Positions 15,895 to 34,974 of a stretch of DNA of 64,000 nt are shown in pieces. A program made the translations under genes and the position numbers. The notes under the pieces were generated by a model, which ran no database searches, was not told the origin of the DNA, and saw nothing but the letters and a program-made list of their open reading frames with translations. The number at the start of each line of letters is the position of its first letter. Positions within the stretch are counted from its first letter, which is position 1. Source of the DNA: an uncultured delta proteobacterium (GTDB lineage: Bacteria; Myxococcota_A; Polyangia; Haliangiales; Haliangiaceae); NCBI GenBank assembly GCA_963848295.1, contig CAWKDB010000010.1, positions 416,001 to 480,000 of the forward strand. The letters run 5' to 3'.

Positions 15895-15923
15895 TGCCGC
15901 TCCTCGCCGGAGCTGGAGGTCGT

Positions 15924-16424: not shown

Positions 16425-16434
16425 GAGTCGCCTC

Positions 16435-17778
16435 ATGCGCCGCGTTACCCCCTGGCTAGTCCTCGTGTTCGTCTTGCTCGTCCCCGCGCTTGCGAGTGCG
16501 GATGACGGCAGCTTCGAGAAATACCAACAACGCGGATACTTGTGGATGTTCCTCGGCTCGTTCGGGGCCGGGTTTCTAACGTCGCTGACCCCGTGTGTCT
16601 ACCCGATGATCCCGATCACCCTTGCGATCTTCGGTGCGCGGGGAAAAGACGTGTCCAAGAAGCGCGCTCTCGGCCTCGCTACTGCCTACGTCAGCGGGAT
16701 GGCGGTCACGTATGCCGCACTCGGCGTGGCCTTCGCGCTCCTAGGCAAGGGCGCGAACTTCGGCACCCAACTCTCGAGCCCTTACGTCGTCATTCCGCTC
16801 GTACTGCTCTTCGTTGCCCTCGCGCTCTCGATGTTCGGCTTGTACGAGCTCAACCTCCCGTCGTCGATCCAGCAGAGGCTCAATCGGATCGGCGGCAAGG
16901 GTCCCGGTGGTGCATTCGCGATGGGGCTGGTCGGCGGGTTGATCGCCGCGCCATGCACTGGACCGTTTCTCGCCGGACTTCTCTTGTTTGTGTCGACGTC
17001 GGGCAGCGTTGTCACCGGCGGTTCACTGCTCTTCACCTACGCGATCGGCATGGGGGTCCTGTTCTGGGGGCTCGCCGCGTTCTCGCTCTCGCTACCAAAA
17101 AGCGGCGCATGGATGGAGCATGTCAAGTCGATCGCCGGGCTCGGCTTGCTGTTTGCCGCGCTCTACTACCTGCGACCCCTCTTCCAGCCGATGCGGACGT
17201 TCGCCTCCCCCGAGCCATGGTTCCTCGTCGCGTCGCTCGCGACCATCACGGTCGGGCTCGCGCTCGGCGCAGTTCACAAGTCCTTTCACGGGTCGGGCCG
17301 AGAGAGATGGCGTAAGGCGAGTGGGGCCGCGCTCGTGATCGTCGGAGCGTTCGCCGCGTACACATGGACGCTGACTCCGAAGCAGCACTTAGGATGGATC
17401 GTCGACGACGAAGAAGCCGCATTCGCGAAAGCTGCGGCCGAGGACAAGGGCGTGATGGTCGACTTCGGCGCTAGCTGGTGCAGACCATGCGAAGACATGG
17501 AGCTCGTTTTCGACGACGACGATGTCCGTGCGGCGATCACGGAGAGCTTCGTACCACTCAGGTTCGACGTCTCCGACGGCAACGACACCGATCTCGAGCG
17601 CAAGTCCCGTTACGGTGCGGACACGCTCCCAGCCGTCATTTTCATGTCGAAAGAACATGTCCTGCTCGCGCGCGTCTCGGAGGAGATGAAGGCGGACCAG
17701 ATGTTAGACGTTGTTCGCCCGGCAGCGGCCCGGACCAAGGGCCGGCCCCCGGTCATGCCTGCATCGAAGCAGCAATGA
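16435..17778 (+). CDS. dsbD: DsbD/CcdA-type disulfide interchange membrane protein with C-terminal thioredoxin
   Basis: SLTPCVYPMIP and AAPCTGP TM cysteines; LPKSGAWM; DFGASWCRPC. Confidence 0.9.
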   Translation: MRRVTPWLVLVFVLLVPALASADDGSFEKYQQRGYLWMFLGSFGAGFLTSLTPCVYPMIPITLAIFGARGKDVSKKRALGLATAYVSGMAVTYAALGVAFALLGKGANFGTQLSSPYVVIPLVLLFVALALSMFGLYELNLPSSIQQRLNRIGGKGPGGAFAMGLVGGLIAAPCTGPFLAGLLLFVSTSGSVVTGGSLLFTYAIGMGVLFWGLAAFSLSLPKSGAWMEHVKSIAGLGLLFAALYYLRPLFQPMRTFASPEPWFLVASLATITVGLALGAVHKSFHGSGRERWRKASGAALVIVGAFAAYTWTLTPKQHLGWIVDDEEAAFAKAAAEDKGVMVDFGASWCRPCEDMELVFDDDDVRAAITESFVPLRFDVSDGNDTDLERKSRYGADTLPAVIFMSKEHVLLARVSEEMKADQMLDVVRPAAARTKGRPPVMPASKQQ

Positions 17779-17813: not shown

Positions 17814-19955
17814 CTAGAGCCGGGTCAACGGAGCAGTCAGCCCGAGCGCGATCGCGATGTGAACGAGCATCGTGACGAGCAACACGACGGAGAACGGGAT
17901 GTGGACCTTCTTCCATGACCGCAACAGCGCCTTGCCGCGCGGCGCGAGGTCGTTGCGCCGCTCGAGGAACACCACGCGATCGATCCGCCTGGCGATCTGA
18001 CGCGCGATCGCGCGTGGGGCAACCGAGCGCAGACGCCGGCGATAACTGCCGCGTTTCCACCATCGGCGGATCTCGTCGGCCATCACCCACGCTAGGAGCC
18101 GCACCAAGCCGAAGTTCCACGTGCGCTCGCTGTGCTGGGTCTCGACGTCGAGGATCTCGTACGCGAGGTTGCCGGCGGCCGGATGGTCTTTCGCTAGCTC
18201 GGTGATCGCACGGCGACCCTGAAGAATCGCGAAGTCGTTCTTGTTCGAGATCGAGGGCACGAACGTGTAGAGGTACCGACCGATGAGGCCGGACCCGACG
18301 ACGGCTACCATGCTCCAGAACGGAATCGACACCCACGTGGTCAATCGCATCGCGGAGTGCAACACGATGAACATCGGTCCGACGATGCCGGTCATGATGT
18401 GGACGTCGAGCCAGAACTGATTCGTCGCGGTTCGCTTGAACCACCCGAACCGCCGCTGCAGGAGATACGCCATCGATAGCACCATCAGGGCCGTACCGAC
18501 GTAGCCGCAGGTCAAGGCGAGCTTCGAGCCGGCGAGAAAGCTGATGTTGAGCCGCGCGATCTCCGGCTCGATGTTCTCGTAGTGCGTCATCAGGTAATAG
18601 CTGGCCGACCAGGTCGGGTGCCACCAGCGCAACGCGATCTCGACGGTGACGACGAGAAGCGATCCGAGTCCGAGTAACCACAAGAGCAAGCTGAGCTTGC
18701 GGACACGAACGCGCGCATCACCGGAATCGTGAACGCCGAGGCCTTCGACGAACGGCGCCTCGGGCAACACGACGAGCTTGCGGCCACGCTTCGTCGGGGC
18801 GCCCGGTTCGGGCCGCTCGCGAAACAGCGTCGCCGGCGACAGCTCGATCAGGGACCCGGTCGGACATGCTGATACGCATGCTTGGTCGCCATAACCGGCG
18901 CAGTGATCGCACTTGTTCGCGATCCGTCGCGCTGGCGCCTTTCGGCCCTTGCCCGGGCCGAACGCGAGCGAGTTCTTCTTCTCGAGCCGCGCCTTGAACT
19001 GCGGGTTGAAGCTCGGCATCTCGGGTTCGGCGACGTTGACCATGTCGATCGCGCCGTACGGGCAAGACAGCGCGCACAGGCTGCAACCGATACACTTGTC
19101 CTCGATGATCTGGATCTCGCCGGTCTTCGCGTCGCGTTTGATCGCGTCGTGCTCGCACGGCGACAGGCAACGCGCGTCGGTGCAAGTGCGACACGTAAAT
19201 ACGAAATCGAGCAGCCCGAGCTCGTAACCACCTAGCGTGAGCCGGCGCGCGCCGTGACGCTCTTCGCACGCGTCTTCGCACTGCTTGCAGTCGATGCACA
19301 GGTCGAGCTGGCGGACCCGCACGATCGGACCCGCGACCGACATGCCGTTACGCGTGTAGAAATCGAGGATCTCGTGCTTGATACCGGTGATCGAGCGCAG
19401 CCGTGCATTCGTCAGCGCGACCGCTGCCGCGATCGACCGATCTGTGCCAGGAGCATGCTGCGCGAGCCAGGCAACCGCCTCGCCTCCGATCATCATCGCG
19501 ATGGCGCCGGTGATCGAGAAAGCGTGAACGCGGTCGTCGCTGGTCGCGCTCGCGATCGCTTGATAGTTGAACAGCTCGCCGGCGTGGAACAGCGCGAGGT
19601 TCTGCTTCGCCGCGCGCGCGAGCGGCCCCGGGGGCAGCAACGTACCTTCCTTCTCGCCGATCGCGGCGTCGCGTTGCGGGCGACCGCGCTCGGCGAGCGT
19701 CGCCGGATCGAACACGCCGATCGAGATCTGGCCACTGACGACAAAACACAACGCGCTGGTCAGCGCCGCGGGTGGCTCGAGGACCGTGTCGCGCGCTACC
19801 TCCAGCCGGCAGACCAAGCCGGCGGTGACGAGTTGGCCGAGCACGCGGTCCGGCACTTCCGAGAGTAGGCCGATCGCGCGCAGCGCCGCATGCGTTGCAT
19901 CCAACGGCGCGGCCGTGTCGCGCTCGCGCGCGGCGGGTTCGACCGTGACCGCCAT
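17814..19955 (-). CDS. Fusion: cNMP-binding-like domain + 4x[4Fe-4S] ferredoxin + 4-His membrane domain
   Basis: FVVSGQI...AGELF; CIDCKQCEDAC, CRTCTDARCLSPC, CIGCSLCALSCP, CDHC..ACVSACP; TM His in WLDVH, IVLH, KKVHIP, MLVH; SGLIGRYLY. Confidence 0.85.
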   Translation of the reverse strand: MAVTVEPAARERDTAAPLDATHAALRAIGLLSEVPDRVLGQLVTAGLVCRLEVARDTVLEPPAALTSALCFVVSGQISIGVFDPATLAERGRPQRDAAIGEKEGTLLPPGPLARAAKQNLALFHAGELFNYQAIASATSDDRVHAFSITGAIAMMIGGEAVAWLAQHAPGTDRSIAAAVALTNARLRSITGIKHEILDFYTRNGMSVAGPIVRVRQLDLCIDCKQCEDACEERHGARRLTLGGYELGLLDFVFTCRTCTDARCLSPCEHDAIKRDAKTGEIQIIEDKCIGCSLCALSCPYGAIDMVNVAEPEMPSFNPQFKARLEKKNSLAFGPGKGRKAPARRIANKCDHCAGYGDQACVSACPTGSLIELSPATLFRERPEPGAPTKRGRKLVVLPEAPFVEGLGVHDSGDARVRVRKLSLLLWLLGLGSLLVVTVEIALRWWHPTWSASYYLMTHYENIEPEIARLNISFLAGSKLALTCGYVGTALMVLSMAYLLQRRFGWFKRTATNQFWLDVHIMTGIVGPMFIVLHSAMRLTTWVSIPFWSMVAVVGSGLIGRYLYTFVPSISNKNDFAILQGRRAITELAKDHPAAGNLAYEILDVETQHSERTWNFGLVRLLAWVMADEIRRWWKRGSYRRRLRSVAPRAIARQIARRIDRVVFLERRNDLAPRGKALLRSWKKVHIPFSVVLLVTMLVHIAIALGLTAPLTRL

Positions 19956-19957
19956 GG

Positions 19958-21904
19958 CTAACCCGGCGAGCTTTCGTCGAGCGCGGTGACCGCAGTTCGC
20001 GTGTCGCCGGTATCGAACGGGTTCGGGCGCTTCGACTCTCCGACCGCGAGACGATCGCCGAACGCTTCGATCTCGCCGGTATCGAACGCGAACTGCTGCG
20101 CGATCGGCCGCTTCGGTGGTGGCGGTGGGACGCGCCGCGGCTTCGCCGAGGTCGGCCGCACCGGGCCCGCACCAACGAACGTGCTCTCCGGGGCGAACCG
20201 ATTGCCGCGCGTGACGCTCGTCGTCGCGGAGTCCCCGAACGGATTACCGGTGATCGCGGGAACTGCGCCGGTGGCGCGCCCCAAGCTCGCCGACGACGGC
20301 ACCGCACGGCGGGCGAGCCGGTTCACCGGAATCAATGGATCGGTCTTGGTCTTCGGCTTCGTCGCCGGCTTCGCGCTCGAGACACGCTGGAGGTCGGAGA
20401 TCTTGAACACACCCGAGAGATCGCTGACCGCATCACGCAGCTCGTCGCGAATCTGACCGACCGCGGCCCGGACCTTGCGCGGTGACGGTCGCGCGCTCGT
20501 CTGCTGGGTGCCGCGCACGAGTGCGATCGATTCGTCGGCCGTGCGCGGACACTCGCTCGCGTCCGGAACCAAGCGACGGACGACCTCGTCGGACGCGCCG
20601 AGCGTGTAGAGGTGCGGTCTCTCGACGAACCGCACGCCGATCGCTTCCAGCCATGCGACCGGAGTATCCGCGCCGATCAGCACGAAGGCATGCTGGTTCG
20701 CGATCGCCGAGGTCGAGCCGTCCTTGAGCTTGATCTCGACACCGTCGCCGGTGAACTGCTGCACGTTCGACTCGAGAAGCACGTCGAGCTTTCCGGTGCT
20801 CGTCATCTCGGCAAGTCGCTTCTGATTGCCTTGTTTGCACCGCTTGAACCCGTCGCCGCGATACGACAGCGTGACCCGCGCCCCGACATCAGACAGCGAC
20901 AGCGCCGCTTCGACCGCCGAGTCGCCGCCGCCGACGACCAACACGTCGCGATCCGCGAACTCGGCCGGATCGTCGAGCAGCGACTGCACCTTCTCGAGGT
21001 TTGCTCCAGGTACGGCGAGCAGTCGTGGCTTGCCGCGCAACCCGGTCGCTAGCACGACGCGGTGTGCGCGATACGTCGCGACCGTAGTCTTGATCGTGAA
21101 CATCCCGTCATCGCCACGCACGACGCCCTCGACCGCCTCGCCGAGCTTCATCGGCAGCCGAACGCCCTCGACGACCTGCTGCCACGCGGCGACGAGCTCC
21201 TCTTTCGAACCATCGAACACCGGCAGATACGACGCATTCACCGCGGTCGACGGCTCGGCCATGAAGTGTTTGCCCTTGGGATAGCGCGACACCGTCGAAG
21301 AGATCACGTGCTCTTTCTCGAGCACGACACAGCTCAGCCCGCGCTTGACGCAGGTCAAGCCGGCCGACAATCCACCCGGGCCCGAGCCGACGATCACGAC
21401 GTCGAGCACGTCTCCTCTCGCGCGCTGCGGGTCGAGCTGACCCGCGATATGCTCGATCACTGCGCGTCCGAGATTGGCCGCGTTCTTGACGAGCGGCTTG
21501 CCTGCGACCTCACCGATCAGGTATTGGCCCGGCACGCCGGTCTGGAAGTGCTCGTCGAGCTCGGGCACGGTCAGCATGCGCGGTGTGCTGCCCGCGCGGT
21601 ACATGACGAGTGCCATCGTCGGACACGAGTTCGCGCACTGCTCGCACTGGACGCAGTCACTGAACCGGCTGACCTTGACCACGTGGTTGACGAGGTCGAG
21701 CACTTCGGTCGGACAGACGTCGATGCACGCCTCGCAGCCGATGCACCGGTCGTCGTTGATCGAGTGGAGCAGCGGGATCGCGGCCTCGACGTTCTCGAAG
21801 CTCGCGAGCCTGCGATAGCGCGCGCGCCGGTCGTCCATGATCGCGCCGAGCCCGAGCAGCAGCACGGCGACCGAAGCGATGGCGATGGGGATGATGGGAT
21901 CCAT
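19958..21904 (-). CDS. Membrane-anchored 2x[4Fe-4S] FAD/NAD(P)H oxidoreductase (TrxR/YpdA-like fold)
   Basis: N-terminal TM; CIGCEACIDVCP and CVQCEQCANSCP; GSGPGG FAD motif; ATG motif; VVGGGDSAVE..SYR NADPH motif; low-complexity tail. Confidence 0.9.
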   Translation of the reverse strand: MDPIIPIAIASVAVLLLGLGAIMDDRRARYRRLASFENVEAAIPLLHSINDDRCIGCEACIDVCPTEVLDLVNHVVKVSRFSDCVQCEQCANSCPTMALVMYRAGSTPRMLTVPELDEHFQTGVPGQYLIGEVAGKPLVKNAANLGRAVIEHIAGQLDPQRARGDVLDVVIVGSGPGGLSAGLTCVKRGLSCVVLEKEHVISSTVSRYPKGKHFMAEPSTAVNASYLPVFDGSKEELVAAWQQVVEGVRLPMKLGEAVEGVVRGDDGMFTIKTTVATYRAHRVVLATGLRGKPRLLAVPGANLEKVQSLLDDPAEFADRDVLVVGGGDSAVEAALSLSDVGARVTLSYRGDGFKRCKQGNQKRLAEMTSTGKLDVLLESNVQQFTGDGVEIKLKDGSTSAIANQHAFVLIGADTPVAWLEAIGVRFVERPHLYTLGASDEVVRRLVPDASECPRTADESIALVRGTQQTSARPSPRKVRAAVGQIRDELRDAVSDLSGVFKISDLQRVSSAKPATKPKTKTDPLIPVNRLARRAVPSSASLGRATGAVPAITGNPFGDSATTSVTRGNRFAPESTFVGAGPVRPTSAKPRRVPPPPPKRPIAQQFAFDTGEIEAFGDRLAVGESKRPNPFDTGDTRTAVTALDESSPG

Positions 21905-21911
21905 GGGGCGC

Positions 21912-22427
21912 TCAGAGATGGACGCGGAAGTCAGACGTGTGGCACATGGACGTGTTGCAGTTCGCGCCGGTCTCGCTGTCGACCTGGTCGAGCATCGGCA
22001 GCACGGTCGGGCACAACGACACGAACGCATACGCGGGATACGTGACGAACCCGTCGGTCGTGTAGAAGTTGCCGCTCGCTCGGCTGATCGCGGTCGCGGC
22101 GTTACCCATCGTGTCTTCGACGTAGATCGTCGCGCCGGTCGCCACCGTCCGCCCGGTCACGTCGGTGTAGATCGTGCCCGCAAACACGAAGGGCGTCCCT
22201 GGCCCGCTCTGACTGTGGCACGCGAGACAGTCGTCCCCGGCCGAGCCGTTGTTTCCAGCCGGTCCGCTGCACGTACCGTCGCTGCCATCGGCCGGCATCG
22301 CTGGTTGATCGCACGCCGGAATCGGAACGCGTGACGCCGCATCGAGATCGGACTGGCCGCTCTTCTCGGTCAGGTCGCCGGAGCAGCCGCAGAAACCGGA
22401 CACGCAGATGATGACCAACCTGTTCAC
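21912..22427 (-). CDS. Diheme cytochrome lipoprotein paralog B
   Basis: GTG start, MNRLVIICVSGFCGC; CLACH and CNTSMCH; AGTIY...GNFY. Confidence 0.8.
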   Translation of the reverse strand: MNRLVIICVSGFCGCSGDLTEKSGQSDLDAASRVPIPACDQPAMPADGSDGTCSGPAGNNGSAGDDCLACHSQSGPGTPFVFAGTIYTDVTGRTVATGATIYVEDTMGNAATAISRASGNFYTTDGFVTYPAYAFVSLCPTVLPMLDQVDSETGANCNTSMCHTSDFRVHL

Positions 22428-22443
22428 TGCGCCTAGCGATTCG

Positions 22444-22460
22444 TGCAACCGCCGTTCCGG
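22444..22460 (-). promoter_or_regulatory. Putative sigma54 promoter of the leftward redox operon
   Basis: CCGGAACGGCGGTTGCA (GG-N10-GC), 16 nt before GTG 22427. Confidence 0.65.
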
Positions 22461-22576
22461 TCGCCCGCACCGCGAACCCATCGTCTGATCGGCCTCGGAC
22501 TGTACGTCCTCCACACAGTCGTGCGGGGGCCGCACGATCGCTGACCGCGAATGTCGAGCAATTCCCGTTCTTGGTG

Positions 22577-22592
22577 TGGTGCGCATTCTGCT
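22577..22592 (+). promoter_or_regulatory. Putative sigma54 promoter of the rightward porin-cytochrome operon
   Basis: TGGTGCGCATTCTGCT, 13 nt before GTG 22606. Confidence 0.55.
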
Positions 22593-22605
22593 AGGGAGCC
22601 AGACG

Positions 22606-23904
22606 GTGAAACTCCCGTGGGGGCTAGTCACGCTTGTTGGCGCGCTGTCGGTAGCCGGTATCGCGGTCGCCGACACGCGCCACACGACCGAGCCGGTCGT
22701 GCTGCGCAAGAAGGCGGGGGAGAGAGAGACCGCGGTCGCGAACCTCCCGGCGAATGCTGCGGTGACGGTGTTGTCGGAGCAAGGACGGTGGGTGCGAGTT
22801 CGCTATGGCTCGGTCGAGGGCTACATCACGCGCACGACGATCGACGAGCCGGTACCCCAGCTGACACCGACCGCGGGGTGGAGTGCGGCGCGCCACCCCG
22901 GTGACGCCGGCGAGGTCACCGATCTGTTCGTGCAGACCACCGTAGCGAGTCGGTTGTTCGCGTCGCCTTCGACGGGGTCCGCCGCCATCGCCGAGCTGCC
23001 GAGCGGGACCAAGCTCAGCATCGTCGACGCGGCGAGCACGCCGGGTTGGATCCACGCTCGCGATGACGGTGGCCACGACGGTTGGGTCGCCCGCGCCGAG
23101 GTCAACGACACGGGCAGCGGTGTTGTCGTCGACGCGAGCAGCATCCACACCTCGAACGTCGGCGCGCCGTTCGTGCGCGCACTCACGCGAATGCACGGCG
23201 AGCTCGGCGTCGGTTATCGATCGCTCGGCATGAACATGACCGCGAACCAGGTCAATGGCTTGACCAACTATCTCGCCACATCCGACGCGATGGCCGCCGT
23301 CGGCGCGGTCGAGGCGTCGTGGACGATCGCCGGGCGGATCTACGTCGGGGCCGATGCGCGGGTGGAGGTCAGTCAGTCGTCGCCCGGGCTGGACTATCCG
23401 GGCCCGACCAACATGCCCGGCAAGATCCCGTTTGACACGTTCGAGGCCGACGCCGGCGGCGAGCTCGGGATCCACGCGAACGAGCTCGTCAACGTCGCGG
23501 TCCACCTCGGCGGCCACTACGATGCGTTCCTGCCGGACGACGTCAACAACGTCGGGATGCTCCCGCGCGAGAGCTTGGTCGGTGCGACGGTCGGTCTGCG
23601 CGCCGCACTCGTGCCTCCACACAGTCGCTTCGCCGCAGCCGCGCGCTTCGATGTGCTCGCGATCGGCTCGCGCGCCCAAACGACTGGCCTGCAAGACGGA
23701 ACCGACAGCCGCGCACATGCCGTGTGGGGGGGGGCGACGCTGAGCTACCTGATCGGCCGCCACATCGCGATGTTCGCGGGCTTCGATCTCGGCTGGGCGT
23801 CGACCCACTGGAACGGCCCATCCGCGCGCGAGCCCGGTGTCACGAACGCGCATCGGGTCGACACGTCGCAGCTCGTTCAACTCGGAGTCAGCGCCGCGCT
23901 GTAG
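22606..23904 (+). CDS. Tandem bacterial SH3 domains + C-terminal beta-barrel
   Basis: Signal peptide; VTVLSEQGRWVRVRYGSVEGYI and GWIHARDDGGHDGWV SH3b-like motifs; alternating strands ending QLGVSAAL; stop abuts the next ATG. Confidence 0.75.
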   Translation: MKLPWGLVTLVGALSVAGIAVADTRHTTEPVVLRKKAGERETAVANLPANAAVTVLSEQGRWVRVRYGSVEGYITRTTIDEPVPQLTPTAGWSAARHPGDAGEVTDLFVQTTVASRLFASPSTGSAAIAELPSGTKLSIVDAASTPGWIHARDDGGHDGWVARAEVNDTGSGVVVDASSIHTSNVGAPFVRALTRMHGELGVGYRSLGMNMTANQVNGLTNYLATSDAMAAVGAVEASWTIAGRIYVGADARVEVSQSSPGLDYPGPTNMPGKIPFDTFEADAGGELGIHANELVNVAVHLGGHYDAFLPDDVNNVGMLPRESLVGATVGLRAALVPPHSRFAAAARFDVLAIGSRAQTTGLQDGTDSRAHAVWGGATLSYLIGRHIAMFAGFDLGWASTHWNGPSAREPGVTNAHRVDTSQLVQLGVSAAL

Positions 23905-26217
23905 ATGATGCGGGCAGTCCTCCTCACGTTCGTCGCCCTGTTCGGGCTCGTCGCGGCTTCCGGCCGCGCCTACGCCGATATCTTGAAGTCGTCTCCCGGC
24001 GAGCTCGCGAAGAGCCACGCGGATCTCGATAGCCAGGACAAGTGCACGGCGTGCCACGAGCCCGACAACTCGATCTCCGCGAACAAGTGCCTCGGCTGTC
24101 ACGACCACCAGAACATGAAGAAGAAGATCGACGCGGGCGAAGGGTTCCACGCATCGCCGAAGGTGAAAGGTCGCGACTGCAAGCTGTGCCACCAAGAGCA
24201 TCGCGGTCGCGGCTTCGACTTGATGGGGTGGGCCGGTATCGGCGGCCAGAACGCGTTCGACCACAAGCTCACGACGTTCCCGCTCGACGGCAAGCACGCC
24301 GCGACGAGCTGCACGAGATGCCACACGACGACGAACCGTCAAGGCCTGCGCACGTTCCTCGGCGCCGACAAGCTGTGCGGCTCGTGCCATGCGAAGGACC
24401 AACCCCACGGCCAGGTCCGCGCGCTCGTCATGCAATGCGGCCGGTGCCACACCGAGGCCGAATGGAAACCGCAGAAGGCGACGCTCGACTTCGACCACAA
24501 CGACAAGAAGCAAGCCGCGATGGCGCTCGAGGGCACGCACGCCGATGTCGCTTGCTCGAAGTGCCACACGAAAGCGGCGTTCAAGCTGTCGCGCCCGGGT
24601 GACACGTGCGAGCAGTGTCACAAGAGTCCCCACGACGGACAGCTGTTCTCGACGAAGGCATGCTCGCTCTGCCATTCGCCGGTGCTCAAGTCGCTCCGTG
24701 AGGTCCAGTTCGATCACAAGAAGAACACCGGCTATCCACTCGTCGCGAAGCACGCGGCGCTGGCGTGCGAGACCTGCCACACCAAGGCGCTCGCGCTGAG
24801 AAAGCCGAACGGCGCGTGCGAGAGCTGTCATCAGAAAGACAACAAGCACGGGACGCGGTTCTCGAAGTTCCCCGCGTGCGCGACCTGCCATACGCAGCGC
24901 TCGTGGACCGCGAGCTATCAGTTCAACCACCGGACGAACACCGCGTTCCCGCTAACCGCAAAGCACGCGACCGTGAGCTGCCGCGCTTGTCACCGCGGGT
25001 CGCGGCCCGACGACTTCGAGCGGTTCGACATCAAGAACGGCTGCATGAGCTGCCACCAGCACAAGAAGGCGCACGGTGGTCAGTACAAGGAGAACCAGTG
25101 CCTGACCTGTCACAAGGAGGCAGGCAGCCCCGAGATCCGCCGCGAGCAAGCGATCGAGCAGTACCACGGGCCGAGCTCGAAGTTCCCGCTCGTCAACGCG
25201 CACGCGACGGTGAAGTGCGAGATGTGCCACATCAACGACGTCTATCAAAACACGCCGCGAGAGTGCGGCGTCACGTGTCACGAGGACTCGCTGCACAAGG
25301 GCACGCTCGGCCAGGAATGCTCGCGCTGTCACGAGCCCGGGCAATGGCCGGCCGTGCGCTTCGATCACAAGGACGACACGAAATGGCCGTTGAAGGGCAA
25401 GCACGCGGAGGTCAAGAACTGCGAGTCGTGCCACCCGGGGCGGGTCTATCACGGCACGCCGACGACCTGCGCCGCCTCCGGCTGCCACAAGAACGACGAC
25501 GTACATCAAGGCCAGCTCGGCACGGCGTGCGAGCGGTGCCACGACGAATCCGGCGCCGTGCTGTTCAAGCACAATCGCGATTCCAAGTTCAAGATCGACG
25601 GCGGCCACGTCTCGCTCGTGTGCGGGGCGTGCCACAAGACCGTCGCGTTCAAGCCGGTGCGGTCGGACTGCTTCGGCTGCCATCCCGAGCCGGCGATCCA
25701 CAAAGGTCGCTACGGTACCGAGTGCGAGCGGTGCCACTCGACCACGAGCTTCGGCGACATCAAGGCGCAGCACGACGTGGGCGACTTCTCGCTCGACGGT
25801 GCGCACGATCAGGTCCCGTGCGCGAGTTGCCACCCGCACGGCGAGAAGCTGCGCGGCTCCGGCAATTTGTGCGTGAATTGCCATCGCCGGGACGACATCC
25901 ACCAGGGCGCGCTGTCGCCGCGCTGTGGTGAGTGCCATACCCAGCGCGCGTTCGCGCCGGCGCGGTTCGATCACCTCAGCGTCGGTTGTTCGCTGATGGG
26001 GTTGCACTCGACGTTGCCGTGCGCGGACTGTCATCGCAATGGCAACTTCGGCGCGGTGTCGCCGATGTGCATCAGCTGCCATCGCAACGACGCGTTGCGA
26101 GTCGCGCAGCCCGATCATCGATCGAACGGTTACTTCGATTGTGGGTCGTGCCACAACCCGACGGCGTGGCTGCCCGCGCGAGCCAAGCCTCTCGGGCGTG
26201 AGACCGTATGTCGATAG
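23905..26217 (+). CDS. 30-heme periplasmic multiheme cytochrome c
   Basis: Sec signal (AYA); manual count 28 CxxCH + CGVTCH + CAASGCH, in ten 3-heme units mostly led by FDH..T.FPL.G.H. Confidence 0.95.
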   Translation: MMRAVLLTFVALFGLVAASGRAYADILKSSPGELAKSHADLDSQDKCTACHEPDNSISANKCLGCHDHQNMKKKIDAGEGFHASPKVKGRDCKLCHQEHRGRGFDLMGWAGIGGQNAFDHKLTTFPLDGKHAATSCTRCHTTTNRQGLRTFLGADKLCGSCHAKDQPHGQVRALVMQCGRCHTEAEWKPQKATLDFDHNDKKQAAMALEGTHADVACSKCHTKAAFKLSRPGDTCEQCHKSPHDGQLFSTKACSLCHSPVLKSLREVQFDHKKNTGYPLVAKHAALACETCHTKALALRKPNGACESCHQKDNKHGTRFSKFPACATCHTQRSWTASYQFNHRTNTAFPLTAKHATVSCRACHRGSRPDDFERFDIKNGCMSCHQHKKAHGGQYKENQCLTCHKEAGSPEIRREQAIEQYHGPSSKFPLVNAHATVKCEMCHINDVYQNTPRECGVTCHEDSLHKGTLGQECSRCHEPGQWPAVRFDHKDDTKWPLKGKHAEVKNCESCHPGRVYHGTPTTCAASGCHKNDDVHQGQLGTACERCHDESGAVLFKHNRDSKFKIDGGHVSLVCGACHKTVAFKPVRSDCFGCHPEPAIHKGRYGTECERCHSTTSFGDIKAQHDVGDFSLDGAHDQVPCASCHPHGEKLRGSGNLCVNCHRRDDIHQGALSPRCGECHTQRAFAPARFDHLSVGCSLMGLHSTLPCADCHRNGNFGAVSPMCISCHRNDALRVAQPDHRSNGYFDCGSCHNPTAWLPARAKPLGRETVCR

Positions 26218-27818
26218 CGCGGGTCACAACGCTCGCGCTTGTCGCGCTTCACGGCGTGGCGCTCGCCGACGGCGACGCGACGACGACCGGCGTGACCACC
26301 ACGGCTCCGGACACCGACCCACTCGACGTCCGGCTGACGCTGTCGTCCTTCCTTTATCAACAGAGTGGCAAGGACGCCGCGCCGATCGTCGACTCCGGCT
26401 CGACGCTGCAGAATGCGAGTCCGGTGCGCCGCGTGTTCGGCGACATGCGCGGCGAGATCTCGGACTCGGGGTTCGCGCTCGACGGCCGCGTGCGCGAGAC
26501 GACGACCGACGACTATCAATCGGGCGCGGTCGGCGGAAGCGAGTACGAGATCCGGACGCTCGACTACCGGCTCGGCTCGCGCGCGACAAACCTGACGATC
26601 GGCCGGCAATTCATCTCGTCGGTCGGCGAGACCAAGGTCGACGGTCTGTCGTTCAACCACGAGCTCGCCTCGGCGCTGTCCGCGACCGTGTTCGTGGGCG
26701 CGTTTCCGCAACTCGGCTCGCGCTCACTCGACACCGACTACATCCACTTCAAGGATCCGATCACGGGCGGCAACGAGGCGTTGATCGTTCCAGTCGTCGG
26801 CGGCGTCGGCATCACGTATCAGACGCTGAACTATCACGGCGACCTCGGTGCGGCCGGGCTGTACGCGCCCGAGTCCCTGCCCGACGCCTCGGCCGACGAG
26901 AAGTCGCGCGTATTCGCGGCCTCGAGCGGTTACTGGCGCCCGGCTTCGATCCTCGACATCTATCACTTCGCACTGCTCGACGTCGTCGGCGCCGACGGCG
27001 TCAACTTGACCGACGGCAGCGTCGGCATCGACCTACGCCCGATCTCGAACGTCGTGTTATCGGCGAGCGCGATCCACATCAGCACGGACCTCCTACAGAT
27101 CGACGCGCGCAACTACCTCACCGACCCGGACCCGAGCGCGATCGGTGTCGTTCAGAACAACGTCGCGCTGCTCAAGATCGCGAACGATATGGTACGGGGC
27201 TCGGCCAGCGTCTCGTTCGCGGAGCGGCGGTTCGAGATCTCGGGCTCCGGCGGTCTCCACGTGCGGCCGAGCGTGACGGTGCCGCTCCCGCTGTCCGACG
27301 GCACCACCGGTGAGCTCGTCATGCCGGAGGAGCGTTCGATCGACGCGACCGTCACGATCCTCGATCGCCGTTCGATCGCCGGCCTGCGAATCGCGGTGTC
27401 CGGCAGCATCATCGATCCGCTCGGCACGAAGACGCCGAATCGCTCGCGCGGCACGGTCGGTCGGTTGTCCGCGAGCCGGACGTTCGCGCTGCAACGCGGC
27501 CAGATCGAGGCCGACGTCATGGCCGAGTCGTTCGACGACATCGGCAGCGCGCAGCAATGCTCGACGTATACGAACCCACTCGCATGCTACGGCACGGCGC
27601 ATACGACCGCAGGCCAGGCCGGCGCGCTCGGCTCATGGCGCGTCGGTCGCGAGTGGCTCGTGCTCGCCGACTTCCACGTCGGGTATCAAAAGATCGGCTC
27701 GACGTTCGTCACGATGGACCCGACCGATCCGTCGTCACCGCTCGTCGACATGCCGATTCACTGGCCGGGAGTCATCTCGGTCACCGCGTTCGCACGTGTG
27801 CAATGGCGGTTCCGCTAG
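26208..27818 (+). CDS. Outer-membrane beta-barrel (porin of a porin-cytochrome complex)
   Basis: Signal peptide; LTIGRQF...KVDG; many amphipathic strands; terminal ARVQWRFR; lies between two multiheme cytochrome genes. Confidence 0.8.
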   Translation: MSIARVTTLALVALHGVALADGDATTTGVTTTAPDTDPLDVRLTLSSFLYQQSGKDAAPIVDSGSTLQNASPVRRVFGDMRGEISDSGFALDGRVRETTTDDYQSGAVGGSEYEIRTLDYRLGSRATNLTIGRQFISSVGETKVDGLSFNHELASALSATVFVGAFPQLGSRSLDTDYIHFKDPITGGNEALIVPVVGGVGITYQTLNYHGDLGAAGLYAPESLPDASADEKSRVFAASSGYWRPASILDIYHFALLDVVGADGVNLTDGSVGIDLRPISNVVLSASAIHISTDLLQIDARNYLTDPDPSAIGVVQNNVALLKIANDMVRGSASVSFAERRFEISGSGGLHVRPSVTVPLPLSDGTTGELVMPEERSIDATVTILDRRSIAGLRIAVSGSIIDPLGTKTPNRSRGTVGRLSASRTFALQRGQIEADVMAESFDDIGSAQQCSTYTNPLACYGTAHTTAGQAGALGSWRVGREWLVLADFHVGYQKIGSTFVTMDPTDPSSPLVDMPIHWPGVISVTAFARVQWRFR

Positions 27819-27884
27819 TGCGGCAAGCGCACGGTGCGCGCACAGGTCGTACACGCCAGGGATGCGCTGGCGCGGGCTTTCGCC

Positions 27885-27900
27885 TGGTCCTTCGTTTGCT
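27885..27900 (+). promoter_or_regulatory. Putative sigma54 promoter
   Basis: TGGTCCTTCGTTTGCT, 13 nt before GTG 27914. Confidence 0.6.
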
Positions 27901-27913
27901 CCACGCCAAGGCT

Positions 27914-30900
27914 GTGCGCGCGTCTACAGCATTCGGCGTCGCGACGCTCGTTGTGCTCGCGGCGTGCAACCTGGGCAACCACGAGCCGTCCGAAGCCGGC
28001 GTAGGTCAGCTGCCTCCATCCGACGCCTGCTCCGGCGTATGCCACGGCTCCGGGCCGAGCATCGCTCCGCCGCGCGATGCTGAAGGCAACAGCCTGACCT
28101 CGGCGAAAGGCGTCGGCGCGCATCAAGCCCACTTGCTGGCCTCGTCGCCCTGGCACGCGACGTTCACGTGCGTGACGTGTCACAAGGTGCCCGCCCAGGT
28201 CGGCGACCCCGGCCACATCTTCAACTACGGCGCCGATGGCACGCCGATCCCGATCACCGGTCCGGCGGTGCCCACGTTCACCGGGCTCGCGGTCGGCGCG
28301 CTGTACGACGAAGACAGCGGGACCTGCACGAACACGTACTGTCACGGCGACACCCTGCACGGCACGAACGCGACGACGAACATGGTGATGGGCGACGGCG
28401 GCGGAACGCTGACCAAGCCGGTGTGGACCCAAGTCGATGGCACCGCAAACCAGTGCGGGTCGTGTCATGGCCTGCCGCCGCCGGCGCCGCATCCGCAGAA
28501 TCAGGACTGCGGTCAGTGCCACCAGTCGATGAACCCCGGCGACTTCGCGGCCGGAAAGATCTCCTACCCCGCGCTCCACATCGACGGTGTCGTCGAGGTC
28601 GCGTCGTCCGAGGCGTGCGATTCGTGTCACGGCGGGAGCGGCCAATACGCTCCGCCCAAGGATGCCCACGGCAATACGCTGACGACCGCGCCCGGCGTCG
28701 GCGCACACGCGCAGCACATGACGACGTCGTCGACGTGGCATGCACCGATCGACTGCAACGAGTGTCATCAGGTGCCGGGCAGCACGACCGACTTGACCCA
28801 CCTCGACGGCATCGACGAGGTCTATCTCGATCCGACCGTCCCGGTGCCCGGTTCGACCACCGGGACCACCGGCGGCAAGCTGCAGATTCCCGGCGCGGTG
28901 TGGAACGCGAACAACTACACGTGCTCGAACACGTACTGCCACGGCGGCGGGACGACGACTCCGCTGACCGGCGGCGCGACCGTGACGCCGTTGTGGACCA
29001 AGGTCGACGGCACCCAGAGTCAATGCCAGTCCTGCCACGGCTTCCCGCCACCGACGCCCCATCCGCAGGACTCCGACTGCGGCAAGTGCCACCCGACGAT
29101 GACGGCGGGCGACAACACGACGATCACGTATCCGGCCAAGCACATCGACGGCAACGTCGACGTCATCAACGATCAACCCTGCAACAACTGCCACGGTGAC
29201 AAGAGCGCGACGCCGGTCGTTGGCGACAACATCGTCAACGCTCCGCCGACCGATACCCACGGCAACACCGCGACGAACCTCATCGGCGTCGGTGCCCACG
29301 CGTCTCACATGCAGGCGTCGAGCTGGCGCGCTGCGATCGCGTGCACGCAATGTCACACCGTGCCGACGTCACTCGAGTCGATCGGCCACATCGATCACCC
29401 GCTGCCCGCGTACGTCCGGTTCGGATCCCTCGCCGGCTCGACCGCGGTCTGGAACGAATCGACGTGCAGCAACACGTACTGCCACGGTGCGACGCTGAGC
29501 TACATGGGCGTCGGCGCCGGCGGCACCGCGACGACGCCGGTGTGGACGAAGGTCGATGGCTCGCAGAGCACGTGCGGATCCTGTCACGGCTTGCCACCTC
29601 CATCGCCGCATCCGCAAGACGCCGACTGCGGCAAGTGCCACAACACGATGACGCCCGGGGGCGGCTTGGTGATCACCGATCCGACGCGTCACATCGACGG
29701 CAACCTCGACGTCGACGACGACAAGCCATGCAATTTCTGCCACGGCAACGCCAGCGCCACGCCGAGCTCGAACAGCGACCCGGTCAACGCACCACCGCTC
29801 GATACGCTCGGCAACAGCTCGACCGCCGATCGCGGCGTCGGCGCGCACCAATCGCACCTCTCGCCGTCGAATCTATTCTTCAAGGCGATCGTATGCAGCG
29901 ACTGTCACACCGTGCCCGCGACGGTGAACTCGGTCGGTCACATCGATCACGCGCTACCCGCGTACATGAAGTTCAGCGCGCGCGCCGGCTCGAGCCCGAC
30001 GTGGAACGGCGCGATCTGCAGCAACGTCTACTGTCACGGCTCGAGCCTTACCGACGGTAGCACCGGCGCCGGCGGCTCGGCGACGTCGCCGATCTGGGCG
30101 AAGGTCGACGGCTCGCAAGCACAGTGCTCGTCGTGTCACGGCAACCCACCGCCCGCGCCGCATGCGCAGGATCCCGACTGCGGCAAGTGCCACAACGACG
30201 TCACGCTCGGCTCGCCGACCGTGTTCAGCGATCCGACGCGTCACATCGACGGCAACCTCGACGTCACCTCGGATCAGCCGTGCAACACCTGCCACGGCGA
30301 TAGCACCGCCACGCCCACCGGCGGCGGTGACCCGGTCAATGCGCCGCCGACCGATACCACCGGCGGCTCCGCGCCGACGCTGCGCGGCGTCGGCGCGCAC
30401 CAAGCGCACCTCACCGGTGGATCGACGTGGCACGCGGTCGTGAACTGCGTCGAGTGCCACGCGGTGCCGACCTCGGTCGAGCCGCATGCGAGCCAGCCGC
30501 TGCCGGCCTCGATGGCGTTCAGCGGCGTCGCCGCGACCGGGACCGGGACGACCTGGGACGGCGCGAACTGCAGCTCGTATTGCCACGGCTCGACGCTCGC
30601 CGCCGGTGGCGCCGATACGTCGCCGGACTGGACCCTGGTCGATGGCTCGCAAGAGCAGTGCACGTCGTGCCACGGCAATCCGCCGCCCGCGCCGCACCCG
30701 CAAGATGCGGCCGACTGCGGCTCGTGCCACATGGACGTCATGCTGGGCTCGCCGACCGTGTTCACCGCTCCATCGATGCACATCGACGGCATCGTCGAGG
30801 TCAGCCAGGTTCATCCGGCCGGCTACGACCAGGTCGCGATGCACGGCTACGACTACGACAAGCAGGGCCAGACCAACTGCGCGACATCGGGCTGTCACGG

Positions 30901-31648
30901 CACGACGCTGCTCGGTGGCTCGACCGGCGGCCCGTCGTGCTCGACGAACAACTATAACGGCGGCGGCTGCCACTCGACGACGATCGCGACCGGCTACACG
31001 TGGCAGACCCAGTGCACGTTCTGCCACGGCGATATCACGACGCCGTCCGGCAACGGCGCGCCACCGCAAGGCGTCGAAGGTGCCACCGCTCCGACCGATC
31101 CGACCGTCGGCGCTCACCAGATCCATCTCGGCGCGACGCTGACCCACGCCACGTGGGACTGCACGATGTGCCACGTCAAGCCGACGTCGGCGACGAGCCC
31201 TGGGCACATCAGCGGCAACGGCACCGACACCGCGAAGATGACGTTCTCGACGCTCAACCCATCCGCGACGTACAACACGACGGCGTATACGTGCGGCACC
31301 ACGTATTGCCATGGCAACGGCCAGACGACCGCCACGTCGCCGGCGTGGACCTCGACCACGGCTCTGACCTGTAACTCGTGTCACAAGACGCCAGCCCCGG
31401 GCGGCTCGGCGTCGGGCATGTCGGGCGAGCACAGCACGCACATCGGGGACCAACGGATGAAGTGCTCGCAGTGCCACTCGACCGTGGTCGACACGACGCC
31501 GAACATCATCAACGTGCTGCTTCACATCAACGGTACGAAGGACGTCAACTTCTCCGGGGGCGGCACGTGGACGCCGTCTGGTACGAGCGGTTCGTGCTCC
31601 GGCCTCGGCGGCAACTGCCACGGAACCAAGAGCTGGAATGGAGGGTGA
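27914..31648 (+). CDS. 33-heme lipoprotein multiheme cytochrome (CxxxxCH/CxxCH repeat type)
   Basis: Lipobox VLAAC; manual count 23 CxxCH, 2 CX3CH, 6 CX4CH, 1 CX6CH, 1 CX9CH; ~200-aa 5-heme repeat. Confidence 0.95.
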   Translation: MRASTAFGVATLVVLAACNLGNHEPSEAGVGQLPPSDACSGVCHGSGPSIAPPRDAEGNSLTSAKGVGAHQAHLLASSPWHATFTCVTCHKVPAQVGDPGHIFNYGADGTPIPITGPAVPTFTGLAVGALYDEDSGTCTNTYCHGDTLHGTNATTNMVMGDGGGTLTKPVWTQVDGTANQCGSCHGLPPPAPHPQNQDCGQCHQSMNPGDFAAGKISYPALHIDGVVEVASSEACDSCHGGSGQYAPPKDAHGNTLTTAPGVGAHAQHMTTSSTWHAPIDCNECHQVPGSTTDLTHLDGIDEVYLDPTVPVPGSTTGTTGGKLQIPGAVWNANNYTCSNTYCHGGGTTTPLTGGATVTPLWTKVDGTQSQCQSCHGFPPPTPHPQDSDCGKCHPTMTAGDNTTITYPAKHIDGNVDVINDQPCNNCHGDKSATPVVGDNIVNAPPTDTHGNTATNLIGVGAHASHMQASSWRAAIACTQCHTVPTSLESIGHIDHPLPAYVRFGSLAGSTAVWNESTCSNTYCHGATLSYMGVGAGGTATTPVWTKVDGSQSTCGSCHGLPPPSPHPQDADCGKCHNTMTPGGGLVITDPTRHIDGNLDVDDDKPCNFCHGNASATPSSNSDPVNAPPLDTLGNSSTADRGVGAHQSHLSPSNLFFKAIVCSDCHTVPATVNSVGHIDHALPAYMKFSARAGSSPTWNGAICSNVYCHGSSLTDGSTGAGGSATSPIWAKVDGSQAQCSSCHGNPPPAPHAQDPDCGKCHNDVTLGSPTVFSDPTRHIDGNLDVTSDQPCNTCHGDSTATPTGGGDPVNAPPTDTTGGSAPTLRGVGAHQAHLTGGSTWHAVVNCVECHAVPTSVEPHASQPLPASMAFSGVAATGTGTTWDGANCSSYCHGSTLAAGGADTSPDWTLVDGSQEQCTSCHGNPPPAPHPQDAADCGSCHMDVMLGSPTVFTAPSMHIDGIVEVSQVHPAGYDQVAMHGYDYDKQGQTNCATSGCHGTTLLGGSTGGPSCSTNNYNGGGCHSTTIATGYTWQTQCTFCHGDITTPSGNGAPPQGVEGATAPTDPTVGAHQIHLGATLTHATWDCTMCHVKPTSATSPGHISGNGTDTAKMTFSTLNPSATYNTTAYTCGTTYCHGNGQTTATSPAWTSTTALTCNSCHKTPAPGGSASGMSGEHSTHIGDQRMKCSQCHSTVVDTTPNIINVLLHINGTKDVNFSGGGTWTPSGTSGSCSGLGGNCHGTKSWNGG

Positions 31649-31651
31649 CAC

Positions 31652-32209
31652 ATGAACAGATCGCTGCTGCTGATCGCACTCATCGCTGGGTGTCAATCCG
31701 GCTCATCGACGAGCGGCTCTGGGCTGCCGGCGGCGAGCAGCTGGAATGCCGATCCGACGGCCGCGACCGCCGCGCCGATCGGCGCCGCGCCGCACGGGAC
31801 GATCCATACCGACGTCAACAAGCTCGGCCTGCCGCCGCCGGACCCGCACCGCACGATGGATCCGACCCACCACGTGCGCGGCGTGATCCACGCACCGCCG
31901 GATGCGAAGGTCGCGGCCGGCACCGCGGTCTTCGTCGTGGCAAAACGGACCGATGCGTCGGGCGCGCCGTCCGGACCGCCGGTCGCAGTCCGGCGCTTGA
32001 CCTGGGGCACGGGTGACTTGCCATTCGAGCTCAGCGAAGCCAATGCGATGATCGCGGGCACGCAACTCGACGGGACCGTCGTCGTCACCGCGCACTACGA
32101 CCATGACGGCGACGCGCTGACGAAGACCAGCGGCGATCTGATCGGCCAGGCCACCGTCACCGTGCCCGACGATCACGTCGAGCTCGCGCTCACGACCGTC
32201 GTCCCGTAA
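31652..32209 (+). CDS. Lipoprotein with CcmI/CycH C-terminal-like domain
   Basis: Lipobox IAGC; VFVVAK...GPPVAVRRL...LPFELSEANAMIAG...VVVTAHYD.DGDA resembles the C-terminal domain of CcmI. Confidence 0.7.
   Translation: MNRSLLLIALIAGCQSGSSTSGSGLPAASSWNADPTAATAAPIGAAPHGTIHTDVNKLGLPPPDPHRTMDPTHHVRGVIHAPPDAKVAAGTAVFVVAKRTDASGAPSGPPVAVRRLTWGTGDLPFELSEANAMIAGTQLDGTVVVTAHYDHDGDALTKTSGDLIGQATVTVPDDHVELALTTVVP

Positions 32210-33204: not shown

Positions 33205-34974
<1,770 letters not shown>

Follow-up and report, generated by a model that had tools for sequence, protein, structure and literature searches.

A divergent two-operon cluster of flavin/FeS, multiheme cytochrome and barrel genes in uncultured Kofleriaceae, with a likely role in transporting electrons from NADPH out of the cell

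To our knowledge, the experimentally tested porin-cytochrome conduits obtain their electrons from the quinone pool; MtrCAB of Shewanella is fed by a quinol dehydrogenase. The locus described here raises the question of whether a conduit of this kind could be fed by NADPH. The window, i.e. the whole 64,000-nucleotide stretch of DNA analysed, contains two divergent operons with eight genes, which encode a flavin/FeS enzyme, a protein of the inner membrane predicted to carry two hemes (FeS-IMP), cytochromes of 30 and 33 hemes and a predicted outer-membrane barrel. Taken together, their products would likely take electrons from cytoplasmic NADPH and transport them out of the cell. Such a chain had been proposed in an earlier note, and all eight genes were found at the positions given there, with 30, 33 and 2 hemes as counted. 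The open reading frames are present, but the longest-ORF starts had to be given up for the oxidoreductase, diheme, SH3-barrel and 33-heme genes, whose likely starts are 21904, 22427, 22606 and ~27896-27914, respectively. GC3 ranges from 0.80 to 0.88 across the ORFs of the cluster. What had been overlooked are the promoters between the operons and, at the N-terminus of 17814-19955, a cNMP-binding-like domain. The features are:

17814..19955, minus strand: FeS-IMP, a degenerate cNMP-binding-like part (residues ~18-195), a HycB/DmsB-type 4x[4Fe-4S] part (residues ~210-370) and a 5-TM domain
19958..21904, minus strand: oxidoreductase, membrane-anchored, 2x[4Fe-4S] and FAD, circularly permuted TrxR/FNR fold, variable C-terminal tail of ~190 aa
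21912..22427, minus strand: small diheme c lipoprotein
22444..22458, minus strand: sigma54 -24/-12 promoter predicted for the left operon, GG-N10-GC
22501..22517, no strand: imperfect palindrome TGTAC...ACA, candidate enhancer-binding-protein site
22577..22591, plus strand: sigma54 -24/-12 promoter predicted for the right operon
22606..23904, plus strand: SH3-barrel protein, signal peptide, two SH3 domains (Pfam SH3_3/SH3_4), predicted small outer-membrane beta-barrel
23905..26217, plus strand: 30-heme cytochrome c, predicted periplasmic, ~25 aa per heme, N-terminal signal-like segment
26208..27818, plus strand: porin, predicted outer-membrane beta-barrel of ~22 strands, plug domain absent
27896..31648, plus strand: 33-heme cytochrome, a lipoprotein rich in G/T/S/A/P with about five repeats, each of ~185-195 aa, start codon uncertain
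31652..32209, plus strand: CycH/CcmI Ig-like lipoprotein

The four [4Fe-4S] clusters and the membrane domain with four His ascribed to the FeS-IMP were both recovered. Sixteen Cys lie in four groups and are unchanged in 77 of 77 aligned relatives, and two WxxxH-x13-H motifs (W515-H519-H533 and W681-H685-H699) enclose S555GxxG; both WX3HX13H motifs recur in 75/77 aligned rows, the two misses being incomplete rows, and SGxxG in 77/77. With 5 TM segments, SGxxG on TM4 and WX3HX13H on TM3 and TM5, the protein agrees with the definition of the PCC3/PCC4 inner-membrane protein (IMP), and its four His are predicted to bind two b hemes. Here this type of IMP is a fused domain and no free 300-aa protein. 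The FeS domain matched HycB (E 4e-21) and PF13247 (28.3 bits, cut-off 26.2), and the AF2 model reached a pLDDT of 81. The cNMP-binding-like fold was recognised by structure comparison (Z 13.1, rmsd 3.5, 137 aligned); PF00027 was matched in two of the 11 members, at E 0.0035 at best, and paralogues with clear cNMP domains align to the FeS-IMP from residue 138 onward at a probability of 99.9. On this fold match, the arrangement of a cNMP-binding and 4Fe-4S (PF13247) protein ahead of a membrane protein, a trait of PCC4/Ptd, is also found here. The membrane domain did not match the ferric-reductase family PF01794, though its His spacing fits, and matched PF01292 (cytochrome b561) weakly, at 19.5 bits and under the cut-off of 30.1; its profile retrieved no solved structural relative by sequence, and no named PCC3 member was among the 75 proteins returned.

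For the neighbouring gene, the reading as an FAD/NAD(P)H oxidoreductase with a TM anchor agrees with an N-terminal TM segment, two ferredoxin motifs and Pyr_redox domains (Pyr_redox_3, 144 bits, by which the likeness to PtdC is one of domain class only). Best PDB matches were Bdr/YpdA, TrxR and FNR, the motifs GGGDSA and S-x-R occur, circular permutation is evident against a Sphingobium protein, and a preference for NADPH is predicted. A bacillithiol disulfide reductase (Bdr/YpdA) was rejected on a TIGR04018 score of 167.8 bits against a cut-off of 339.9, the extra TM and ferredoxin domains and the permuted order, and TrxR on its absent CxxC. The diheme lipoprotein carries CxxCH and Cx4CH as noted before, and its lipid Cys is invariant in 22 rows.

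On the envelope side, the SH3-barrel protein has the two SH3 domains, and its C-terminal part lies nearest to the Atlas clusters of OpcA, autotransporter and OMP barrels (0.95-0.96). The 30-heme cytochrome contains 28 CxxCH, one Cx3CH and one Cx4CH, i.e. 30 motifs in 746 aa, and thereby has the very many hemes and low aa:heme ratio of the periplasmic cytochrome of PCC3; its N-terminal segment predicts a periplasmic location. Shuffled 30-heme and 33-heme proteins gave on average 0.4 and 0.2 CxxCH, with maxima of 4 and 3 (1000 shuffles). The porin, whose folding as a barrel able to hold a cytochrome had been named beforehand as decisive, was modelled by AF2 as a barrel of almost all strand (pLDDT 87.8, pTM 0.83); on this model, the cluster includes an outer-membrane beta-barrel gene like PCC3. 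The model aligns to Occ porins and, in their barrel part, to TonB-dependent receptors at Z 17-19; no Pfam/TIGR family was matched, outer-membrane barrels of several families score similarly, and the sequence profile has no solved relative. MtrB was absent among the 50 structural matches listed but may nevertheless be kin. The lack of a plug of its own in the model and the position of the barrel gene after the cytochrome in 40/40 evaluable type B loci (see below) fit a pore filled by a cytochrome.

In the mature 33-heme protein, 23 CxxCH and 10 variant motifs take up 66 of 67 Cys, and the remaining one is the lipid Cys. TIGR01904 scored 185 bits, G, T, S and A make up 12.7, 12.6, 8.9 and 8.6% and repeats are present. 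The lipobox Cys is retained in 19/19 relatives, of which 15 have Asp at +2, an inner-membrane retention signal in E. coli lipoproteins. Lipoprotein sorting in M. xanthus follows other rules than in E. coli, according to the part of the source used here (PMC3222651). The porin-cytochrome layout of periplasmic cytochrome, porin and lipoprotein cytochrome was supported. The last gene kept its identity as CcmI-like (PF23892 Ig_CycH) but lost its place as a conserved member, as only two of the 20 matches, which came from 18 of the 20 genomes searched, had it next to the 33-heme gene, and is regarded as a local add-on. A TlpA/DsbD gene (15894-17778) was likewise rejected, with no match in 80/80 loci.

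Comparison with other genomes covered 80 loci retained out of 207, of which 27 belong to the type of the window (type A); all ratios count loci with room. The suggested myxobacterial host was supported, and the cluster is conserved in uncultured Kofleriaceae (Myxococcota), where the two operons, which the proposal needed to co-occur, do stay together: in type A loci the diheme lipoprotein gene lies upstream of the FeS-IMP in 21/21 and the oxidoreductase directly upstream in 18/21, SH3-barrel and 30-heme genes are present in all 16-17 evaluable loci, the porin in 15/16 and the 33-heme gene in 14/16. In the three exceptions, oxidoreductase and 33-heme genes are paired head-to-head, in two of them ~5 kb past the porin on the same contig. 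Commoner is type B, a three-gene operon of FeS-IMP, 29-30-heme cytochrome and porin, with the 30-heme cytochrome in 47/47 evaluable loci, an adjacent oxidoreductase in 0/43 and a 33-heme homologue in 0/37; the core may therefore need neither a surface cytochrome nor a flavoenzyme of its own. Since this core operon is present in nearly all family-level relatives searched, its function would bear on the ecology of an uncultured myxobacterial group.

Synteny, co-occurrence and fusions all speak for the claimed coupling of a cytoplasmic flavin/FeS module to the heme-b protein. Porin and oxidoreductase matches were concordant in 38/40 genomes (29 both, 9 neither), a count of related genomes, hence no independent samples, which is further weakened by G026 and G029, where the oxidoreductase match is a 35% paralogue inside its own IMP operon. 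In Sphingobium, FAD domain, cNMP and FeS parts are united in one 825-aa protein, encoded directly upstream of a 10-heme cytochrome and a membrane protein of the HX13H kind, cytochrome-TM-ferredoxin-FAD fusions adjoin a cNMP-FeS-IMP in five loci, and oxidoreductase-IMP-36-heme operons occur in two. A related, plasmid-borne operon with the order IMP-oxidoreductase-23-heme-40-heme is found in the cultured Bacteroidota strain Emticicia oligotrophica DSM 17448, where EMTOL_RS21090/21095 correspond to the pair of oxidoreductase and FeS-IMP.

The divergent operons of related Kofleriaceae are predicted to share back-to-back sigma54-type promoter motifs, based on the -24/-12 consensus in the part of the source used (PMC7910581). 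The left motif occurred in 20/21 intergenic regions (shuffles mean 0.9, max 4) and the right one in 17/21 (mean 5.0, max 9). The palindrome, a pattern set after inspection of the data, was found in 12/21 (mean 0.55, max 3), and a search for FNR/CRP boxes in the intergenic region gave merely scattered matches with up to 3 mismatches.

From these parts a one-way export route can be proposed, in which the membrane-anchored flavoenzyme would oxidise NADPH and electrons would pass over its own [4Fe-4S] clusters and those of the FeS-IMP to a predicted pair of b hemes in the inner membrane. The 30-heme cytochrome would take them up, span the periplasm as far as into the predicted barrel and deliver them to the 33-heme lipoprotein; the cNMP-like domain may be a regulatory input. 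The route presumes physical contacts, heme b binding, an outward direction and surface exposure of the 33-heme protein. With electrons leaving the cytoplasm for the periplasm and protons staying inside, proton-motive force would be spent and none built. Such a line would therefore most likely shed reducing power or reduce an outside acceptor (Fe(III), humics or O2), possibly under sigma54 control. We give about an even chance to this reading, in which NADPH electrons are exported in a NOX/MsrQ-like manner into a porin-cytochrome wire, probably to dispose of reducing equivalents or to reduce something extracellular, and with no energy conserved. A barrel of 22 strands, narrower than the 26-stranded MtrB, the +2 Asp and the missing PF01794 match count against it.

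The published model of PCC3/PCC4 would make the conduit respiratory, its two-heme domain trading electrons with the quinone pool and the FeS/flavin parts serving as side entry or regulator. A quinone-active cytochrome b role was proposed for the same HX13H protein by He et al. (PMC5566968), and the weak cytochrome b561 match and the type B operons without adjacent flavoenzyme point the same way, as does ubiquinone co-purifying with MsrQ (PMC12525009, in the part consulted). The same part of that source, however, describes electrons reaching MsrQ from a cytosolic NADH oxidoreductase, redox potentials that disfavour ubiquinone as donor, and a quinone that is apparently acceptor and no donor. Quinol oxidation, moreover, needs neither a fused four-cluster FeS domain nor an NAD(P)H flavoenzyme as recurrent neighbour or fusion partner, and we consider this model unlikely for the window. 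The line from NADPH to heme may also be real and end within the envelope, as a redox buffer or for local chemistry (handling of O2/ROS, reduction of metals to be taken up), the 33-heme lipoprotein not being surface-exposed. This would suit the 37/37 evaluable type B loci whose core operon lacks the outer cytochrome, the +2 Asp, and a host with four heme-copper oxidase-family loci, which is thus probably no strict metal respirer. No convincing NrfA was found in the genome. An end within the envelope fits poorly with the barrel gene that follows the cytochrome in every evaluable type B locus, the plug-less barrel model and a 33-heme composition resembling the extracellular cytochromes of PCC3 (PMC5566968), and appears distinctly improbable.

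FNR-type enzymes work in both directions, and with PCC3/PCC4 known from iron oxidisers (PMC5566968), an extracellular donor such as Fe(II), reduced humics or partner cells might instead drive NADP+ reduction inward through the FNR-like enzyme. As this would mean going uphill in chemical terms as well as against the membrane potential, with no coupling subunit apparently encoded, it seems very unlikely. Returning to the export of NADPH electrons, a far-reaching version, conceivable though doubtful as a whole, is a NOX-like trans-envelope wire of all Kofleriaceae, bringing NADPH electrons straight to the surface without quinones, with a cyclic-nucleotide-type gate and a sigma54 switch; in the window it would be extended by the 33-heme surface part and used by a probably oxygen-respiring myxobacterium on minerals, humics or neighbouring cells without conserving energy.

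Compared by architecture and motifs, the cluster differs from the predicted conduits PCC3 (He et al. 2017, PMC5566968; Gallionellaceae pangenome preprint, PMC9900912) and PCC4/Ptd (PMC5566968; bioRxiv 10.1101/2023.11.21.568154), yet belongs to the same sort. A literature search, with subscription journals outside its coverage, yielded PCC3/PCC4, Ptd and a lake survey and no publication describing the cluster in Kofleriaceae. With PCC3, as judged from published descriptions, it shares the predicted barrel (for the Leptothrix example, 22 TM strands are predicted), a very large periplasmic cytochrome with ~25 aa per heme, a large low-complexity cytochrome with a putative outer location and the 5-TM protein, in which SGxxG is combined with two WX3HX13H motifs. 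The 33-heme lipoprotein fits the T/S/A/G-rich, repeat-bearing extracellular cytochrome of PCC3 in composition and repeats, its surface location being putative. Unlike in PCC3, cNMP-like and 4x[4Fe-4S] domains are fused to the membrane protein, flavoenzyme, diheme lipoprotein and SH3-barrel are added, and the genes, here in Myxococcota, are divided between two divergent operons.

A cytoplasmic FAD/cNMP/FeS/ferric-reductase-like module beside a porin is already published for PCC4/Ptd, where porin, FAD/NAD(P) oxidoreductase (PtdC), cNMP/4Fe-4S protein (PtdE) and ferric-reductase-like membrane protein (PtdF) correspond to the parts found here; the novelty of the cluster is consequently lower than the earlier note had judged. 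PCC4/Ptd, however, has cytochromes of 4, 5 and 10 hemes, all three periplasmic, and lacks an extracellular one, against 2, 30 and 33 hemes in the window, where the oxidoreductase further carries a TM anchor of its own together with two ferredoxin sites. Throughout the family of the window, the PtdE-like part is fused to the PtdF-like part, and He et al. reported one genome in which the FeS and IMP genes had been annotated as one (PMC5566968). With MsrQ, NOX and STEAP, as far as described in the part of PMC12525009 used, the likeness is one of working principle, from a cytosolic NAD(P)H flavoenzyme over membrane heme b to an acceptor across the membrane; the FeS-IMP differs by its lack of a PF01794 match, an extra FeS relay and a multiheme wire as acceptor.

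Periplasmic cytochrome, barrel and lipoprotein cytochrome recall MtrCAB, but the cytochromes of the window are no decahemes, the periplasmic one having 30 hemes and staying far below the cut-off of the MtrA/DmsE-family decaheme model TIGR03508 (39.7 against 192.2 bits), and the barrel is smaller. If true, a conduit fed by NADPH would differ in input and in purpose, as reducing power would be exported at an energy cost, and oxidoreductase and FeS-IMP form a pair that could be reconstituted and bears on the electron source of the membrane protein of PCC3, PCC4 and Ptd.

All eight genes that the earlier note had assigned to two divergent operons proved real and closely spaced, with intergenic gaps of 2 and 7 bases in the left operon and a spacing of 0 bases, then a 10-base overlap, in the right one.

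17814-19955, minus strand: FeS-IMP (inner-membrane protein)
19958-21904, minus strand: oxidoreductase (flavoenzyme)
21912-22427, minus strand: diheme lipoprotein
22606-23904, plus strand: SH3-barrel protein
23905-26217, plus strand: 30-heme cytochrome
26208-27818, plus strand: porin
~27896-31648, plus strand: 33-heme lipoprotein
31652-32209, plus strand: CycH-like protein

The heme numbers claimed for the large cytochromes were recovered as well, with 30 motifs in 23905-26217 and 33 in the mature lipoprotein, whose motifs use 66 of its 67 cysteines; shuffled sequences yielded at most four and three CxxCH, respectively. Since the closest named relatives are Kofleriaceae/Haliangiales MAGs (top identity 94%), we infer a host of that group, in agreement with the myxobacterium supposed before. 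Its genome (G000, completeness 85%) holds cytochrome c assembly genes and four heme-copper oxidase-family loci. TlpA-like thioredoxin and DsbD/CcdA genes (15894-17778), which converge on the left operon and could help cytochrome c maturation, were not conserved as neighbours among the compared loci (best 80 of 207).

Linkage was assessed in the best 80 of 207 loci, 27 of the kind found here (type A, 62-94% identity) and 53 of a commoner three-gene operon (type B, 39-46% identity), with only loci of sufficient sequence in the denominators. Type A formed one clade in a quick tree (13 rows, support 100), and within it the co-occurrence of both operons was borne out at 14/16 to 21/21 per gene: among these best 80 loci, the diheme gene was found in 21/21 and the oxidoreductase gene in 18/21 evaluable type A loci and, given at least 8.5 kb upstream, the SH3-barrel and 30-heme genes in 16/16, the porin in 15/16 and the 33-heme gene in 14/16. 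In the three type A loci without the oxidoreductase, a head-to-head oxidoreductase/33-heme pair sits elsewhere, in two of them about 5 kb beyond the porin on the same contig. The CcmI-like (CycH-like) gene, formerly counted with the set, is no conserved neighbour. In evaluable type B loci of the same best 80, a cytochrome lies downstream of the FeS-IMP in 47/47 and a porin in 40/40, with an adjacent oxidoreductase in 0/43 and a 33-heme gene in 0/37. Upstream, type B operons (L067-L120) usually adjoin the gene of a response regulator whose C-terminal part is HTH-like (39 loci) and in 28 loci rpe, a stable housekeeping context. Porin and oxidoreductase matches were concordant in 38/40 genomes (G010 left out); being related, these genomes do not count as independent, and in two cases the match is a remote paralogue that has a membrane protein of its own. 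Of 35 other genomes searched, 4 held a long and close homologue of the 33-heme protein (>60% identity). The cluster is real and conserved. Away from the core, an 11-heme lipoprotein, SH3-barrel and diheme genes stand together at two loci (L164, L169), at L164 with an oxidoreductase gene.

FeS-IMP, multiheme cytochrome and porin occur once more in the host genome, in a type B copy (G000:C11:493663-500167) that is frameshifted and readable in several frames, for which assembly error and decay are both possible; the genome also has an unlinked oxidoreductase paralogue. A further multiheme cluster (G000:C10:4198029-4206215) comprises an ORF resembling a decaheme lipoprotein, one with 12 motifs that is related to the 33-heme protein, a small cytochrome with a membrane anchor and more multiheme ORFs; at G000:C2:778334-782956, possibly another porin-cytochrome cluster, a 705-aa ORF without heme motifs lies between 14-heme and 16-heme ORFs.

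The reading of 26208-27818 as a barrel stood as regards the fold: the AlphaFold2 model (131 sequences) is all-beta (pLDDT 87.8), with about 22 predicted membrane strands and without plug, and aligns at Z 17-19 to Occ porins and, within TonB-dependent receptors, to the barrel. This porin family is restricted by lineage, being present in 7/251 genomes drawn evenly from the phylum and in 4/4 own-family genomes of that draw (own genome excluded). The FeS-IMP consists of three parts. Its N-terminal domain takes a cyclic-nucleotide-binding fold in the model (137 aligned residues, Z 13.1, rmsd 3.5) and is degenerate in sequence (PF00027 match in 2/11 members), and paralogues carry two clear cNMP domains; the central domain, of HycB/DmsB type, holds 16 invariant Cys; of the five hydrophobic helices in the membrane domain, helices 3 and 5 each carry WxxxH-x13-H and helix 4 carries SGxxG. 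In the oxidoreductase, a TM anchor and two ferredoxin motifs are joined to a flavin domain of TrxR/FNR fold, the best solved relatives of which are Bdr/YpdA, TrxR and FNR. It lacks the TrxR CxxC and scores under the YpdA cut-off, and both identities were rejected. GGGDSA followed by S-x-R presumably indicates NADPH. As residues 111-158 align to 284-331 of a Sphingobium protein and residues 179-432 to 1-284, the fold is circularly permuted.

That flavoenzyme and FeS-IMP act together is argued most strongly by fusions and parallel operons, in which flavoenzyme, HX13H membrane protein and multiheme cytochrome recur in other layouts. In five loci (L121-L125), a fusion of 1200-1350 aa (four FHA domains, 7-heme cytochrome, TM helix, two ferredoxins, FAD domain) lies upstream of a cNMP-cNMP-FeS-IMP, with a 15-heme cytochrome adjoining in 4/5; this layout suggests a redox wire under phospho-signalling control. 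Two loci show the order oxidoreductase-IMP-36-heme, and in Sphingobium herbicidovorans FAD, cNMP and FeS domains share one protein, followed by IMP and a 10-heme cytochrome. A plasmid operon of Emticicia oligotrophica DSM 17448 (L170, NC_018749.1:78197-90781) reads ccsA-IMP-oxidoreductase-23-heme-40-heme-hypothetical and offers a cultured test case; its terminal 538-aa protein gave no match by porin profile.

Judged from these sequences, the most likely route would lead from NADPH via FAD and 2x[4Fe-4S] of the oxidoreductase to the 4x[4Fe-4S] and two b hemes of the FeS-IMP, and on, perhaps via the diheme lipoprotein, through 30 hemes passing the barrel to the 33 hemes. MsrQ, a membrane heme protein fed by a cytosolic NADH oxidoreductase, is the working precedent (PMC12525009). 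Outward transfer would be downhill, yet cost membrane potential, which favours shedding of reducing power or extracellular reduction over respiration. This outward reading is weakened by type B, which has no outer cytochrome, and by Asp at +2 of the 33-heme lipoprotein in 15/19 relatives, lipoprotein sorting rules being different in M. xanthus (PMC3222651).

With patterns drawn up after the sequences were viewed, a leftward GG-N10-GC was found in 20/21 divergent intergenic regions (0.9 on average and at most 4 in shuffles) and a rightward one in 17/21 (average 5.0, at most 9); in 12/21 an imperfect palindrome lies between the two (average 0.55, at most 3). The 21 regions omit incomplete type A loci and four others, three with <260 bases upstream and one without a diheme match coordinate. 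The spacing agrees with the sigma54 consensus TGGCACG-4N-TTGC(T/A) (PMC7910581), and the genome encodes sigma54; the cluster is probably co-regulated. The genes just downstream (33205-35966) code for a sigma54 activator of FHA-GGDEF-like type and for a triheme lipoprotein.

Among known systems, identity with MtrCAB was rejected. The outer half of the cluster resembles PCC3 (PMC5566968; also PMC9900912) in its testable features, namely the barrel, the predicted periplasmic cytochrome with its many hemes and the motifs of the inner-membrane protein. The FeS-IMP membrane domain has the features that define the PCC3/PCC4 inner-membrane protein in He et al. 2017 (PMC5566968), where it is likened to a ferric-reductase/NOX domain and modelled as quinone-active. 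The inner half resembles PCC4/Ptd; the cytochromes of the cluster, with 2, 30 and 33 hemes, do not match the PCC4/Ptd set of 4, 5 and 10. The Ptd operon (bioRxiv 2023.11.21.568154), whose function is given as unknown, encodes a porin besides PtdC (FAD/NAD(P) oxidoreductase), PtdE (cNMP + 4Fe-4S) and PtdF (ferric-reductase-like). A lake survey (bioRxiv 2022.03.26.485925) credits Myxococcota with the most novel multiheme clusters; an account of this cluster from Kofleriaceae was not found in the literature searched, and the supplements to the lake survey, the Ptd paper and He et al. may already include members from myxobacteria or this domain arrangement. The PCC3/PCC4/Ptd-like kind to which the cluster belongs is itself only predicted; new here are the cNMP-FeS-IMP fusion across the family, the division into core and accessory genes, the circular permutation of the flavoenzyme, the motifs of sigma54 type and an organism in culture that could serve for tests.
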